Below are positions 28,701-58,700 of a stretch of 64,000 nt of DNA, in pieces. The DNA is taken from the NCBI GenBank assembly GCA_963793265.1, contig CAWBZI010000007.1, forward strand, positions 64,001 through 128,000. Reading direction: 5' to 3'. A program made the position numbers. Within the stretch, counting starts at the first letter, position 1. Each line of letters begins with the position of its first letter. The DNA comes from an uncultured cyanobacterium (GTDB taxonomy: Bacteria; Cyanobacteriota; Cyanobacteriia; Phormidesmidales; Phormidesmidaceae).

Positions 28701-31700
28701 GAGTCCGTCGTTGGCCATCATGTTGATAGTGGTGCGATGGGCGGCTTTGGCAGTAGTCCCTAGCCCCAAGACAACAAAAGCAATCACCAGCGCGTTGAGG
28801 GCAACTACGCCCCAGTTACCTGCACTAATATTGTAGGAGATATATTTGATGTAGTCGCGGCCTACCTGCGTAAGATTTTTACCAGCGCTGCCGGATTGAA
28901 TGGGAGATTTGGAAGACATAGAACGATGCTTGATAGATAGGTTTGATTAAGCTATACAAGAGATTGTTTTACGGCGAGTTGGTTTCGGAACTGTTAGCAC
29001 CTTCAATCAGCTCGCCGTTGCCGGATGCATTAGGCCCAACGTTGATAGCCCACGCCAGGCCGCCGAGCGCGAGTACGCTAATGACGAAGACAGAGATAAA
29101 GACGCTGATAGTCGTTGAGTTGCCGCTATCCTGACTGAAATCTCTGCCAACTTGAACAGAGTTGCCACGAACGTTTTTAGCAGATTGCTTGGGTGGATTA
29201 GGCTGTTGCTCAGACATGAAATTTTTCCTTAAAACGGGGTTTTAGTAGAAAGTTATCAAAGGGAATAGCTGAGATGCACCTCGTTTTTGCTGCCCCCTTG
29301 TACATCTATCAGAGACGGTTAGAAATTTTATGCATGAGGTTTGCAAAGGAAGATCTTTTACAACATAGATGTATATGTTGTAACTTTTCCTAAACTCAGC
29401 AGCCTCTCCATATCTTCTCCATCTTTCTTATTTACGCTGACTTCAATCAATCGAGAAAAGACAGTTTGCTTAAAGCTGTCCTCGACAGCGCAGGAAAATG
29501 AAGATGACACAGATAGGCTTTGGGAGAACGAGCGCACTGGATCGCTTTGAACCACAGGTGTCTCCAACAGCGGCTAATATCGAGAGCCACTTTAGCTACC
29601 CAGTCAGTGCTGAAAATACTGCAACAGAGTCGGGCCGCTTGCGGCTTTGGCGTCGATTTTGCCTGTGGGTTACTAGCACTGAAAACCGGATATATATCGG
29701 TTGGTTTGGCATGATTGCGATTCCAACCCTTTCTACTGCGGCCATTGTGTTTTTGCTGGCTATTATCGCGGCCCCGGCTGTCGATATGAACGGTACAGGG
29801 CAAATGGTTTCAGGCGCTTTGCTGGATGGCAACAATCTGATTACGGCTGCTGTTGTACCCACGTCAGCGGCCATTGGTACGCACTTCTACCCGATTTGGG
29901 AAGCTGCCTCTATGGACGAATGGCTGATGAACGGTGGGCCTTATCAGCTCATTGTGCTGCATTTTATTATCGGCATTATCAGCTATCAAGATAGAGAGTG
30001 GGAGCTGAGCTATCGGCTAGGAATGCGTCCATGGATCTCGCTGGCCTTTACTGCGCCTGTAGCAGCGGCGGTGTCGGTGCTGTTGGTTTATCCGGTGGGT
30101 CAGGGTGGATTTGCTTCGGGGATGCCCCTCGGCATTTCAGGCACGTTCACTTTTATGATGCAGTTTCAGGCCGATCACAACATTTTGGCCAGTCCGTTTC
30201 ACCAGGCGGGTGTTGTTGGCGTGCTGGGTGGAGCCTTGCTGTGCGCGGTTCATGGGTCTTTGGTGACTTCGACGCTGACGCGCCCTGAAGACAGATCGTC
30301 TGGAGACTACAGCTTTGAACACGCCCAGCGCTTTCAACAAAAGTTCTTTTGGCGCGGCGCTCAGTTCGACAGCTCGCGGGCCGTACACTTTGTCCTTGCA
30401 GCGATTCCGGTTGCGGGTATTTGGTCGGCGGCGCTGGGTGTGGATATGGCGGCTTTTGACTTTGACCATTTTCCACTGATGAGAGGGTCGGTGCAAAAGA
30501 CGGTTGCGCCTACTTGGTCTGATCGAGTGCTACGCGCCAATCTTGGCATCCAGGCGATGAAAGAAGTGAATCAAACAAAGTTTCCAGCGCTGATTACACC
30601 GTTGACAATAAAGGAGAGTTCTCATGACCGCTAGTCCTCCGAAGCCGGAGACGCCTACTCGGGTTGTTACTGATAACAATCCGGTGCCAACCTCTTTTGA
30701 GAAGTGGGCAAAGCCGGGACACTTTGATCGAACGCTGGCACGTGGGCCTAAAACCACTACCTGGATTTGGAACCTACACGCTGACGCGCACGACTTTGAT
30801 ACGCATACGGCTGATTTGCAAGATGTCTCTCGCAAAATCTTTTCTGCTCACTTTGGGCATTTGGCCGTTGTTTTTGTTTGGCTGAGTGGAATGTATTTCC
30901 ACGGGGCTCGCTTTTCTAATTTTTCGTCCTGGATGAGCGATCCGGTTCATATTAACCCGAGCGCTCAGGTGGTGTGGCCGCTGGTTGGGCAAGACATTTT
31001 GAATGCTGATATGGGCGATGGTTTTAGAGGGATTCAGATTACCTCTGGGCTGTTTCAGATGTGGCGCGGTGAAGGGTTTACGAACGAGTTTCAGCTTTAT
31101 TGCACCGCAGTCGGGGCGCTGGTAATGGCAGCGCTGATGATTTTTGCGGGCTGGTTTCACTACCATGTGCGATCGCCCAAACTAGAATGGTTCCAAAATG
31201 TCGAGTCGATGCTCAACCACCATTTAGCCGGGCTGCTGGGCCTGGGCAGTTTGGGCTGGGCCGGGCACCTCATTCACGTGGCTTTGCCGACCAACAAACT
31301 GTTAGATGCTGGAGTGGCACTCAAAGACATTCCGCTGCCGCACGAGTTTATTCTAGACAAAGCGGTGATGGCCGAGCTTTATCCTGGATTTGCGCAAGGG
31401 CTGAAGCCTTTGTTCACGCTTAACTGGGGGGCCTATGCTGACTTTCTTACCTTTAAGGGGGGATTGAACCCGGTGACTGGGGGCTTGTGGATGACGGATA
31501 TTGCGCATCATCATGTTGCGATCGCTGTCCTCTTCCTGGTCGCAGGCCACATGTACCGCACTAACTGGGGCATTGGGCACAGTATCAAAACGATGCTAGA
31601 CGATGCCAGAAACCCAAAGATGCTGCCGTTTTTGAGCTTCATTGGCCCAGAAGGACACAGGGGACTCTACAAAGTACTCACTACCTCCTGGCACGCGCAG

Positions 31701-55700: not shown

Positions 55701-58700
55701 CTCACCTAACAAAGCCTATGTTTTTAACTAAAAAGATACCGTACAAAGCGATCGCCGTATCATTCTTAGCCCTTTGCTTAGGACTGCTAACGGCCTGTAG
55801 CAATAGCCCAACGATAGGCAGTGGCTCACTTAGCTATGACGATATTAAGGGTAGCGGACTAGCGAATAACTGCCCTCAGCTTACAGGCACCAATATGGAT
55901 TCGATAGCTGTAGAAGGAGAGCAGCCTTACCAGCTCAAAGCGCTTTGCATACATCCTGAAACGTTCTTAGTGAAGCGGGAGAGTCCGTTAACCCGCCAGG
56001 GAAAACGTCAGGAAGGTAAGTTTGTAGAAAGTAAGCTGTTGACCCGCGAGAGTTCTACGCTCGATCAGGTTAGTGGTGTGCTGCAAAGTGCTCCCGACGG
56101 CAGCTTGACTTTTATCGAGCGAGGCGGATTTGACTTTCAGCCGATTACCGTTCAGCTACCGGATGGTGAACGTGTGCCTGTTTTGTTTACGGTGAAGGGA
56201 CTGGTGGCGAATACTCAAGCAGCGATCACAGCACTTACTCCATCTACCCGGCTATCAGGAAGCTTTGACGTACCGCCCTATCGAACCTCTAGCTTTATCG
56301 ATCCAAAGGGTCGTGGGCTTGCGGTGGGTTACGATGCGGCAGTTGGCATTCCTATTCAGGCGGATAGAGACAAGTTTTCTAAGCAAAACAACAAGTCTTT
56401 TGACATGGCGAAAGGACGTATTGTGCTGCAAATAGAAAAAGTGAATCAGAGAACCGGAGAACTTTCGGGTCAGTTCGAGAGTCAGCAGCCTTCGGATACT
56501 GATTTTGGCACGAAAGAAGCCATGACCGTCAAGATTCAAGGGACATTTTACGGACGTGTTGAGCCAGAGATTGCGTAGTTTATATTCATTGAGGGACGTT
56601 TTACCATGATTGGGAAACTAAGCCTAGAACAAGAACTTGAGCTGAAGATTTTGAGCGATCAAGCCCAGCGGCTGTCTCTTGATCAGGCTCAAAGGTATAT
56701 CGTTGAAGTAATGCGGCAAATGATGGTTAGAGACAATCTATTAAGCCATCTATTAACAGAAACCGGGCTTCCTCAAGAACAGTATACGCAGTCTATTATT
56801 TTTCAGGGAAAGTCTTCCTGGTACGAAGGAACTTAAGCAGTTTAAGTTAGATAGCCACAGAGAAGAAAAAACGTAGAGGGGACAATAGCAATGATTCGTG
56901 TTCTTAAAAAGATTCTGGCTAGTGCCGCCGCTTTGTATGCGATTGTAACGGCTTTGATGATAGCGTTTGCCTGGACGAGTAGTGCGATCGCACTTGAAAT
57001 CGACGCCCCCCTTCGCACGGTACCGCTCAATGATACGGGTGAACAAACGACGCTGACCATTGAGCAGATTATGCTCGGACAGCAAAAGTTTAATAGTAGC
57101 TGCGCTCAGTGCCATATAGACGGCAGCACAAAGCCTAATCCCGATGTAGATTTGAGCACTCAAACGCTTGCGCTCGCCACACCTTCGCGCGACAGCGTTA
57201 GCAGCCTGCTGGACTATCTCGATCATCCCACTACTTATGACGGGCTGCGATCGCTAGCCGATCTGCACCCGTCTACGCTGAATCTCGATCTTTTTCCTAG
57301 AATGCAGGGTTTGTCTAGGAGTGATTTGGAGGCGATCGCAGGCTACATTTTAGCGGAGCCTAATATTGTTGGAGAGCGGTGGGGCGGCGGTAAACCCAAG
57401 CGGTAAATGTTATGTACGCTATTCTCCTAACCGCGTTAGTTCTTCTAAAAGTAGAGCTTCGGCTTCGGCATCTGAAAGATTGTCTATGTCTTGAGTTTGT
57501 TCAGTAGAGTCTATGAAGAAGTCAGCCGCTTCAAGAGATGAGATCGGAGGCGCAATGAGCGCTACGAGATAGTCTTTGAGAAGCGATGGCGTTGGGTAGT
57601 CGTAGATGAGGGTGACAGGTAGAGGGCTCTGAAGGTTGGTTTGTAGGCGGTTGCGCAGCTCTACGGCGGTGAGCGAGTCTAGGCCGAGTTCGGTAAAGCT
57701 GCTGCTGAAGTCGGATAGCGGAACAAGATCTGTCCCTAACACTATGGCAATTTGTTGCTGTAGGTGATGCGATATTAGAGCCTGTCGCTCTGGCTGGGTG
57801 GCCTGCTCGATTTTAGTTCTGAAAGCGGTGGGTGCAGCGGATGTTTTCGCAACACTCATTTGTGCTGTGTTGTCGGCAAAGAGCGTGTTACTGTTTGCTA
57901 TGCTTGTCCAGTTTTTGATATCTCCTGGTAGAATGCCGATTTGAGGCGCTTCAGCAGCGTTAATCATGATCTGGCTCAAGAGAGACAGTCCGATTTCAGG
58001 CTCAATTAAAGGAATGTTTGCTTTGTCCAAACGCTGTTTTACGGCTGGATTGTTGGCTAAGTCTGTGCCTGCCCAAGCCGCCCAGTTAATGCTCAGCGCA
58101 GGAAGCTCTAGCTGATGGCGTAGGGTAGCTACGGCGTCTAAAAAGCTGTTAGCGGCGGCGTAGTTTGCCTGTCCAGCCGATCCGAGAAGAGAGGCGGCCG
58201 AGGAGAACATAACGAAGTGATCGAGTGGTAGGCTTCGGGTGAGCTGGTGTAGGTGCCAGGTGCCAGTGACTTTAGCTGACATGGCACGCTCGAAGTGAGG
58301 CCAGGTTTGTTGTGATAGAGCGCTGTCGTCGGTTTGGCCTGCTAGGTGGAAGATTCCTTTGAGCGGATTTGTTGCAGAAAACTCAAGCATATGGGCGAGG
58401 GCTGCTGTTAGAATAGGTAAGTTGGAGAGGTCGGCCTGGATAGTTTGAATAGTGATACCAGACTCGGTGAGCTGTGCGATCGCCTCCTCAGCTTGGGCAG
58501 AAGGCTGTTGTCTTCCTAATAGCGTAATGTGGCGGGCACCTTGACTAGCTAACCATTGGGCGACCTGTAAACCGAGCGCGCCTAAGCCGCCTGTAATGAG
58601 GTAATTTGCGTCGGAGCGAATAATGGATTTTGACTCTATAGCAGGCGGCGTAACTACGACTTTGCCAATATGTTTGGCTTGTTGCATCGTGCGGAAGGCG

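Follow-up and report, generated by a model that had tools for sequence, protein, structure and literature searches.

What does an nblA gene do at the end of a far-red-light (FaRLiP) gene cluster? Canonical NblA, as known from the structures of the Anabaena, Synechococcus elongatus and Thermosynechococcus proteins, serves ClpC as an adaptor when phycobilisomes are degraded under nutrient stress. The window, that is, the whole 64,000-nt stretch of DNA analysed here, contains a complete FaRLiP cluster, at the end of which lie psbO2, nblA and psbV2. How the visible-light antenna is disposed of on the switch to far-red photosynthesis is poorly understood, and a degradation adaptor controlled by the promoter motif of the cluster itself would offer a direct genetic handle.

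Apart from nblA, the cluster is textbook FaRLiP. Its first gene is chlF (29498..30634, forward strand; Photo_RC, 257 bits in Pfam), which encodes the chlorophyll f synthase, a PsbA paralog; the product shares 54-57% identity with the other PsbA-like copies of the genome versus 70-85% with the ChlF matches in the genus. The same strand carries psaA2, psaB2, psaL2, a psaI2-like gene, psaF2 and a psaJ2-like gene (30624..37032; Pfam matches to PsaA_PsaB, PsaL and PSI_PsaF), where the small open reading frames at 36117-36290 and 36895-37032 appear PsaI/PsaJ-like on reading by eye. It also carries the regulators rfpB (Response_reg, Trans_reg_C and Hpt), rfpA (GAF, PHY, PAS, HisKA and HATPase_c) and rfpC (Response_reg), which span 37281..42247, and psbA3 (42908..43987; Photo_RC, 299 bits in Pfam). 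On the reverse strand we find psbH2, psbB2, psbC2 and psbD3 (46547..50908; PsbH with 72.9 bits, PSII twice, Photo_RC) and the far-red allophycocyanin operon (50943..55505), in which an apc gene, apcE2 and three apc genes give Phycobilisome and PBS_linker_poly matches. Judging from the sequence, the first apc gene most likely starts with the ATG at 55505. A TTG at 55550 was disfavoured as the start: when translated from there, the product has a second start, MSLVTE..., further in at residue 16, and orthologue alignments begin at residues 8-16.

The three genes at the cluster end all lie on the forward strand. These are psbO2 (55718..56578; MSP, 320.1 bits in Pfam), for a manganese-stabilising protein of the far-red type, nblA3 (56606..56836; NblA, 58.7 bits in Pfam), for a 76-aa NblA paralog in which Thr replaces Lys at residue 51 and the C-terminus is extended by a tail of ~25 aa, and psbV2 (56891..57406; Cytochrom_C550, 160.7 bits in Pfam), for a cytochrome c-550 paralog with a CAQCH haem motif. 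Gaps of 27 nt (psbO2-nblA) and 54 nt (nblA-psbV2) separate them, and no terminator-like sites were found in between. Coordinates and sequence thus agree with the order, spacing and common strand given in the genome-wide survey's note. The note was also right that the genome has a second PsbO and a second PsbV (52% and 45% identity between the copies, respectively) and that this is its third nblA: there are exactly three NblA-family matches in the whole genome, the two other genes being on contigs C6 and C1. One of these, nblA1, is flanked by a CpeS-like lyase gene on one side and a beta/alpha phycobiliprotein pair on the other. As is expected of a cluster gene, nblA3 lies within the contiguous FaRLiP cluster and has paralogs elsewhere in the genome. 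The best solved relative of PsbO2 is chain O of 8EQM, the far-red PSII of Synechococcus 7335 (PMC9843442; 424 bits, next chain 311), and by sequence PsbO2 qualifies as an orthologue of the PsbO isoform found in far-red PSII. PsbV2 shows no preference for a far-red PSII chain (169.4 for 8EQM_V versus 170.6 for 8WQL).

How common is this arrangement? The survey, which counted three more genomes out of 172 and a fourth in part, greatly underestimated this. Of 173 family genomes, 42 have a psbO2 of the FaRLiP type, at 43 distinct loci when counted by locus, and in 24 of them nblA follows directly downstream of psbO2 (24/43 distinct loci); these belong to five genera. In the 43 loci, a module psbO2-[psbF2]-[nblA]-psbV2 adjoins the far-red apc operon; psbF2 is present in 17 and absent from 7 of the 24 nblA-bearing loci. 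All 11 other members of the genus with an NblA3-type match have colinear psbO2-nblA-psbV2, and the eight loci fetched from the four other genera all have the order apcE2< apc< apc< apc< psbO2> [psbF2>] nblA> psbV2< chlF> psaA2>, seven of them with psbF2. The position of nblA is constant in five genera despite the inversion of psbV2 and the loss of psbF2, and none of the 24 loci has a disrupted nblA frame. The window unit, with psbO2, nblA and psbV2 in module order and 27 nt between the first two, is a psbF2-less form of the family module, not a rarity of three or four genomes. On the other side of the count, nblA is absent from 19/43 psbO2 loci, and an NblA HMM (E<=1) matched nothing within ~3 kb in the 18 nblA-less loci that were fetched; the sequence of one of them breaks off 301 nt downstream. 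It follows that nblA is dispensable for FaRLiP and not a general requirement of the acclimation. In five ChlF-bearing genomes outside the family, none of 12 NblA matches is on the chlF contig (in the single-contig genome, none is within 0.9 Mb of chlF).

In the 212-nt spacer between apc and psbO2, one 15-17-nt motif of the FaRLiP promoter type occurs twice in inverted orientation, each copy facing one operon. The copy facing apc, TTCATAGGTTCTTCATG (55552..55568, reverse strand), is an exact match to the 15-mer, with 46 nt between it and the ATG at 55505, and the copy facing psbO2, TTCATAGGTTTTTCATG (55636..55652, forward strand), lies 65 nt before the psbO2 ATG, with TATATC 9 nt further on. 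These two sites are the only exact matches of the 15-nt motif TTCATARGTTYTTCA in the 5.68-Mb genome; GTAACTTTTCCTAAA stands upstream of chlF at 29380-29394 and GTAACTTTTCTAAAG upstream of psbA3 at 42492-42506. When up to two mismatches are allowed, TTCATARGTTYTTCA has 90 matches in the 294 kb of the 43 loci, compared with 3 for the reversed control, and none of the matches falls inside a gene. By direction, 38 matches point toward apc, 32 toward psbO2 and 18 toward chlF. The psbO2-facing motif is a conserved block in 13/13 aligned Phormidesmis intergenic regions and is present in 24/24 nblA-bearing loci. Upstream sequence of 300 nt or more is available for 18 nblA-less loci; 10 of these lack the psbO2-facing motif at up to two mismatches, so the regulation of psbO2 varies within the family. 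A motif shared by psbO2, apc and, in relatives, chlF argues for far-red co-regulation, with RfpB as the putative binder. Note that the motif was derived from the loci analysed here and may correspond to the published one; in Nodosilineales, according to Antonaru et al. (bioRxiv 10.1101/2024.05.15.594131), psbO is preceded by a FaRLiP motif that is short and T-rich, and apc by a long one.

How far does the protein resemble canonical NblA? The NblA profile (PF04485) matches residues 4-50 with 58.7 bits against a cut-off of 25, and both helices align with the Anabaena protein 1OJH without gaps (residues 4-51 to 6-53, E 2.5e-5); the N-terminal LSLEQE.EL block is conserved. The model predicts a two-helix hairpin (helices 7-21 and 25-53, mean pLDDT 77) followed by a tail of low confidence (pLDDT ~52 falling to 39). 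A homodimer is also predicted, with an ipSAE of 0.47 versus 0.01 for the best control, a partner pLDDT of 66 and runs that share at least 77% of contacts. This mark is reached by 20/30 proteins solved as pairs and 1/23 solved as single chains, and the pass may reflect likeness only, since NblA dimers have already been solved. The differences from canonical NblA are the length of 76 aa with the extra tail, the place in a photosystem/far-red operon, the lack of an NtcA-type box nearby and a Thr at the position of Lys53. In 2006 Bienert et al. reportedly found the C-terminal Leu51 and Lys53 of Anabaena NblA to be needed for phycobilisome binding. NblA3 keeps the Leu (L49) and has Thr51 in place of the Lys; without the conserved C-terminal basic residue, canonical phycobilisome binding cannot be assumed.

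This change is not limited to the window. The residue aligned with Lys53 is T, S, G or E in 13/13 Phormidesmis FaRLiP-linked copies, as opposed to K or R in seven aligned copies from other genera and in the housekeeping NblA1, and the 13 copies have a conserved tail of ~20 aa, TG[LIM]PQ..Y[ST]Q[SA]I.FQ.K. They group as one clade on a long stem (support 100/100). The pooled dN/dS among 12 Phormidesmis copies is 0.13 (core 0.08, tail 0.28), with dS near saturation, and the non-synonymous divergence pN is 0.22 for the cluster NblA versus 0.06 for NblA1 in the same genus. What seems to be new, then, is a fast-evolving Phormidesmis clade of cluster NblA that has lost the C-terminal Lys/Arg and gained a tail of ~20 aa. 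Conservation in five genera, purifying selection, the shared motif upstream and the lack of terminator-like sites inside the unit support the view that nblA truly belongs to the psbO2 unit embedded in the cluster and is maintained there by selection.

The gene set itself is already in print. Gisriel et al. (J Biol Chem 2022, PMC8689208) mention, in passages on Synechococcus sp. PCC 7335, the one relative in which the operon has been studied, 'an nblA paralog' in a psbO1/psbF2/psbV operon, and describe the two psbF genes of this strain, one of them in the psbO1/nblA/psbV operon, as 'not modulated by FaRLiP'. According to a passage of PMC9843442, the genes of the PCC 7335 operon are outside any FaRLiP cluster, yet their isoforms are the abundant ones. 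As far as these papers describe it, the PCC 7335 operon has the same set of PsbO, NblA paralog and PsbV genes, whereas the window unit lacks psbF2, is part of the FaRLiP cluster, where it adjoins far-red apc back to back, and carries a FaRLiP-type motif. The work by Antonaru et al. (bioRxiv 10.1101/2024.05.15.594131), which lists psbO2, psbV2 and psbF2 as optional FaRLiP genes of Nodosilineales, concerns the same lineage and accessory PSII paralogs, and shares the idea that an intergenic motif is duplicated ahead of apc, chlF and psbO; its main text, figures and supplements aside, has no occurrence of 'nbl', in line with the survey's remark that it does not mention nblA. The arrangement is thus not new, and with the rest being textbook FaRLiP, the value of the locus lies in a testable hypothesis and a map of the distribution rather than in a new type of system. 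For an nblA between extra photosystem II genes at the cluster edge, discovery would be too strong a word; it is a solid lead that can be tested.

The closest physiology is that of Chlorogloeopsis fritschii PCC 9212. Passages of Ho and Bryant (2019, PMC6424891) confirm the 2-3 fold rise of the unlinked nblA1 and nblA2 in far-red light that the survey had cited, together with lower phycobiliproteins, and describe most non-cluster far-red responses as RfpABC-independent. More NblA in far-red light and hence fewer visible-light phycobiliproteins is also what we propose, except that nblA is outside the cluster there and physically inside it here.

Our preferred reading, to which the analysis gives about an even chance, is that nblA3 is a FaRLiP accessory gene, activated by far-red light with the psbO2 module and encoding an adaptor that thins visible-light phycobilisomes. 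It would belong to a module specific to the lineage (Phormidesmiaceae/Nodosilineales), psbO2-[psbF2]-[nblA]-psbV2, which is set back to back with the far-red allophycocyanin operon; this genome would have lost psbF2 from it and has psbV2 on the strand of psbO2 and nblA. Far-red light would activate the apc-facing and the psbO2-facing promoters through the RfpA/C/B cascade, and psbO2-nblA-psbV2 would be made as one mRNA. By homology, NblA3 would be a helix-hairpin dimer and a ClpC/Clp protease adaptor on phycobiliproteins. It would help to reduce the visible-light phycobilisomes as the cell assembles far-red allophycocyanin cores and far-red PSII. Given the changed C-terminus, the target preference of Phormidesmis NblA3 may differ from that of NblA1. 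The survey had seen phycobilisome removal as a programmed step of the acclimation; of this, nblA as a conserved and selected part of the unit stands, while its optional nature (19/43 loci without it), the lost basic residue and the earlier passage in PMC8689208 count against the rest.

An alternative is constitutive expression of the module, nblA included, or its control by another signal; ancestry and synteny rather than far-red control would then explain why it sits in the cluster, and NblA3 would be one more general isoform. The PCC 7335 case as described in the passages of PMC8689208 and PMC9843442 agrees with this, as do the 10/18 nblA-less loci without a psbO2-facing motif. We nevertheless consider it unlikely, as the unit here is inside the cluster, under an exact motif copy common to apc (and chlF in relatives) that all 24 nblA-bearing loci keep. 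No NtcA-type site (GTAN8TAC) was found near nblA3, whereas GTAACACTTGTTAC lies ~240 nt upstream of the housekeeping nblA1, a weak contrast given that 63/200 shuffles contain at least one site.

A further reading has NblA3 induced by far-red light and retargeted. Instead of removing visible-light phycobilisomes, it might serve in quality control or turnover of the far-red allophycocyanin made by the neighbouring operon, form heterodimers with NblA1, or compete with NblA1 and so protect the new cores. The lost Lys/Arg and gained tail in 13/13 Phormidesmis copies, the well-supported clade with its long stem and raised pN, and the presence of nblA1 beside phycobiliprotein genes all fit it. However, the FaRLiP-linked copies of the four other genera keep Lys/Arg and normal length, which makes retargeting genus-specific at most, and the tail is modelled at low confidence; we regard this version as improbable, too. 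A related idea, to which we give a low probability, is that the Phormidesmis cluster NblA, with Thr or Ser in place of the Lys and its conserved tail, is a far-red-induced, retargeted protease adaptor that tells visible-light phycobiliproteins from far-red allophycocyanin paralogs. If true, the antenna swap of FaRLiP would include a cluster-encoded proteolytic step, beyond dilution and transcriptional shut-off. Finally, the patchy distribution and the faster evolution relative to NblA1 could mean that nblA3 is a decaying passenger duplicate of nblA1 with no role in acclimation, but the intact frames, the dN/dS and the constant position in five genera make this very hard to believe. The natural presence and absence of nblA (24/43 loci) and the two protein forms, with or without the Lys and the tail, provide a ready comparison for the target specificity of NblA.

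The three genes psbO2 (55718-56578, + strand; 286 aa; Pfam MSP, 320 bits), nblA (56606-56836, + strand; 76 aa; Pfam NblA, 58.7 bits with a cut-off of 25) and psbV2 (56891-57406, + strand; 171 aa with the haem motif CAQCH; Pfam Cytochrom_C550, 160.7 bits) are separated by gaps of 27 nt (psbO2/nblA) and 54 nt (nblA/psbV2), each of which holds a GAGG-type ribosome site. Upstream of this trio we find a complete FaRLiP cluster, in which Pfam matches identify chlF, psaA2/B2/L2/F2, rfpB/A/C, psbA3, psbB2/C2/D3, apcE2 and four apc genes; psbH2 also belongs to the cluster, and PsaI-like and PsaJ-like small ORFs can be read by eye. 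Open reading frames, sequence and Pfam matches thus bear out what the genome-wide survey's note had described, that is, both the trio at the end of the cluster and the completeness of the cluster. Its claim that this nblA (nblA3 in the following) is the third of the genome holds as well, since there are three NblA matches in all. The genome has one other PsbO (52% identity to PsbO2) and one other PsbV (45% identity to PsbV2). A polyketide-synthase-type gene (57419-62137, - strand; 1572 aa, AT-DH-ER-KR-ACP) is convergent with psbV2, with 12 nt between the stop codons, and we therefore take the trio as the edge of the cluster.

A search with NblA3 in the 173 genomes of the family returned full-length matches in 11 further genomes, all of them Phormidesmis (59-80% identity, E<=2e-22). 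The trio is colinear in 11 of 11, and far-red apc genes lie within the 1.5-kb flank in 8 of them. Another Phormidesmis genome, G142, is a twelfth member with a more diverged copy of NblA3. Going by the coordinates of ChlF, nblA also occurs outside Phormidesmis, at a distance of about 1 kb upstream from chlF: all eight regions, from four other genera, have the order apcE2< apc< apc< apc< psbO2> [psbF2>] nblA> psbV2< chlF> psaA2>, with psbF2 present in seven. The orientation of psbV2 differs, being co-oriented in Phormidesmis and inverted in the other genera.

FaRLiP-type psbO2 was found in 42 genomes of the family. When public genome contigs were scanned with PsbO2, 30 loci came up (Phormidesmis, Vasconcelosia, Halomicronema, Nodosilinea, Leptolyngbya cf. 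ectocarpi and Oscillatoria sp. CS-180), every one adjoining far-red apc; in the nblA-less loci among these a 44-aa psbF2 fills the gap. An NblA HMM, run over the six-frame ORFs of at least 30 aa in the 18 psbO2 regions without an adjacent nblA among the matches listed, had no hit at E<=1 (the region of G016 ends 301 nt downstream), and both positive controls scored. After deduplication there were 43 distinct psbO2 loci. An nblA is present in 24 of them (17 with psbF2 and 7 without, the window being among the 7) and absent from 19, of which 15 carry psbF2. The few genomes counted in the survey's note were therefore far too low a number, and the linkage is much commoner. Outside the family, ChlF occurs in 5 genomes of a 400-genome sample of the phylum, and none of the 12 NblA matches in these lies on the chlF contig or, in the single-contig genome, within 0.9 Mb of chlF, so the linkage is family-specific.

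Some loci deserve a separate remark. ChlF was found in 18 of the 46 Phormidesmis genomes. In six of the Phormidesmis genomes (G140, G123, G115, G156, G129 and G131) the match covers residues 2 to about 267 only, with 79-83% identity and open frames of about 420 aa; the C-terminal third of ChlF seems to be divergent or interrupted in this subgroup. In G160 (contig C9, L041/L070), psbO2 consists of two pieces about 1 kb apart (residues 3-65 and 35-280), and about 2.2 kb separate apc from the main piece, which points to either an insertion or the duplication of a fragment. A 2.9-kb contig with far-red apc, psbO2 and psbF2 (L066, PWXP01000261.1) comes from a MAG labelled Planctomycetaceae; it merges with a Nodosilinea locus (L065/L087) on deduplication and is therefore probably mis-binned.

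Next, we asked what precedes the trio. For the first apc gene, the ATG at 55505 is the most likely start, which would make the divergent apc/psbO2 spacer 212 nt long. In an alignment of this spacer from 13 Phormidesmis loci, two blocks are conserved, one being the reverse complement of the other; in the window, TTCATAGGTTCTTCATG (55552-55568, - strand) faces apc, and TTCATAGGTTTTTCATG (55636-55652, + strand) stands 65 nt before the ATG of psbO2, with TATATC 9 nt further on. Our first motif guesses, GTAACTTTTCYTAAA and TARSTTYTYC, were too loose to place psbO2 and were replaced by this footprint of aligned intergenic regions. Exact matches to TTCATARGTTYTTCA occur in the 5.68-Mb genome only at the two spacer sites; one mismatch adds two more, and the reversed control gives 3. 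With up to two mismatches, the 15-mer occurs 90 times in the 43 distinct loci (294 kb) as against 3 for the reversed control, never inside a gene, and faces apc 38, psbO2 32 and chlF 18 times. It faces psbO2 in 24 of 24 nblA-bearing loci, and among the nblA-less loci with enough upstream sequence (n = 18) it does so in 8 and is missing in 10; all these motif counts are drawn from related, non-independent genomes and are not to be read statistically. The distance between the apc-facing and the psbO2-facing copy varies from 34 to 139 nt in Phormidesmis; in other genera it is usually almost constant, at 66-69 nt from start to start (for example in loci L046, L048, L049, L051, L052, L055 and L068), with 81 nt in L053. 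The main text of Antonaru et al. (bioRxiv 10.1101/2024.05.15.594131) describes a 'short motif' upstream of psbO and a 'long motif' upstream of apc, and our motif pair fits this verbal description.

Within the trio, a scan for terminator-like hairpins found none. We considered TTGAGC-16-TATATT (56559-56586), just before nblA, as an internal promoter, and did not take it as one because the sigma-70 scan gave 2 sites with 2.3 expected. We infer that the trio is co-transcribed and controlled by RfpB.

The alignment of NblA3 with Anabaena NblA (1OJH) has no gaps over residues 4-51. In the family, the housekeeping NblA1 hardly varies: it is 53 aa long and ends in ...DNLVKHLLKNA. The FaRLiP-linked NblA of the four other genera keep both this length and a Lys or Arg at the position of Anabaena Lys53. 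Bienert and co-workers reportedly found in 2006 that a lysine at this position matters for phycobilisome binding. All 13 Phormidesmis copies have Thr, Ser, Gly or Glu there and an added conserved tail, TG[LIM]PQ..Y[ST]Q[SA]I.FQ.K. They form one clade with a support of 100/100 and a long stem in a tree of 73 columns, which is compatible with a single or a multiple origin of all FaRLiP-linked NblAs. In the AlphaFold model of NblA3, residues 7-21 and 25-53 are helical, residues 57-67 form a weak third helix, and the pLDDT drops from about 52 to 39 in the tail. A prediction with two copies passed our complex test (ipSAE 0.47, best control 0.01, pLDDT 66). Among proteins of solved structure, the mark of this test is attained by 20 of 30 pairs and 1 of 23 single chains. 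At least 77% of the contacts agree between runs, and the predicted interface takes in residues 2-55, with the tail outside. Since NblA dimers exist in the PDB, the pass means a likeness to them and no more. A homologous-protein search with NblA3 returned 8 close relatives; each is a short entry, either unnamed or titled 'NblA/ycf18 family'.

Among solved chains, PsbO2 is by far closest to the PsbO of the far-red PSII of Synechococcus sp. PCC 7335 (8EQM_O, 424 bits; next 311), and we therefore consider the module in the window and that of strain 7335 (psbO1, psbF2, an nblA paralog and psbV) as homologous. PsbV2, unlike PsbO2, has no preference for the far-red PSII chain. Among the coordinates of the NblA3 and PsbO2 matches in the family, no psbO-nblA pair remote from apc, such as would mark strain 7335, was evident. 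Antonaru et al., in their main text, treat psbO2, psbV2 and psbF2 as optional members of the FaRLiP gene set in the earliest lineage and do not mention nblA, which their supplementary tables or figures may show. The earlier finding holds and has somewhat more to it than the survey's note gave, yet psbO2-nblA-psbV2 is a member of a module already noted. A full-text literature search for nblA in the context of FaRLiP found a single sentence, in PMC8689208, to which the supplements of Antonaru et al. may add. The literature search, whose scope excluded supplements and the 7335 transcriptome, gave no mapping of nblA across FaRLiP clusters, no motif link and no Phormidesmis variant. From unlinked nblA genes being up 2-3 fold, Ho and Bryant 2019 (PMC6424891) proposed an NblA-mediated loss of phycobiliproteins in far-red light.

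We think that nblA3 most likely belongs to the far-red module as an accessory gene under selection, that a promoter which bears the motif and mirrors that of apc would most likely drive it together with psbO2 and psbV2, and that its product would most likely act as a Clp adaptor in antenna remodelling. A weak point of this account is a contrary remark on strain 7335, whose two psbF genes 'are not modulated by FaRLiP' in the words of a passage in Gisriel et al. (PMC8689208). On this side stand the rival explanation that the trio, nblA3 included, is expressed constitutively, and PMC9843442, according to which PsbO1, PsbV1 and PsbF2 are the abundant isoforms in far-red PSII and are not encoded in a FaRLiP cluster; on the other side stands the psbO2-facing motif of the nblA-bearing loci.

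Another weak point is that nblA is optional among the relatives. That nblA3 is a decaying passenger is an improbable rival reading; the Phormidesmis copies evolve about 3.5 times faster than NblA1 of the same genus at non-synonymous sites (pN 0.22 vs 0.06). On the other hand, purifying selection acts on them: dN/dS is 0.13 when pooled, 0.08 in the core and 0.28 in the tail, with dS near saturation. The loss of the conserved basic residue in NblA3 is also a weak point, and may go together with a third rival, a retargeted or modulatory NblA. We keep the selected far-red accessory gene as the most likely reading.

The housekeeping nblA1 of the genome (L001, contig C6 of G000, at about 496-499 kb) is flanked by a gene for a CpeS-like bilin lyase and by a beta/alpha phycobiliprotein pair, with a palindromic GTAACACTTGTTAC of the NtcA-box form about 240 nt upstream. 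Thus, nblA1 and nblA3 alike have phycobiliprotein operons as neighbours. Within the FaRLiP cluster, between psbA3 and psbH2, there are genes for a universal stress protein (44549-45169, + strand), a CBS-domain protein (45153-45668, + strand) and a pentapeptide-repeat protein (45720-46280, - strand). Motif-like sites stand upstream of and co-oriented with the first (TCCATAAGTTCTCCATA, 44257-44273, + strand) and the last (CTCATAAGTTCTCCATA, 46414-46430, - strand), and these may be further far-red-regulated accessory genes. Between rfpC and psbA3 there is an ORF of 75 aa without a Pfam match (42571-42798, + strand), a putative gene, which follows a GTAACTTTTC site at 42492.
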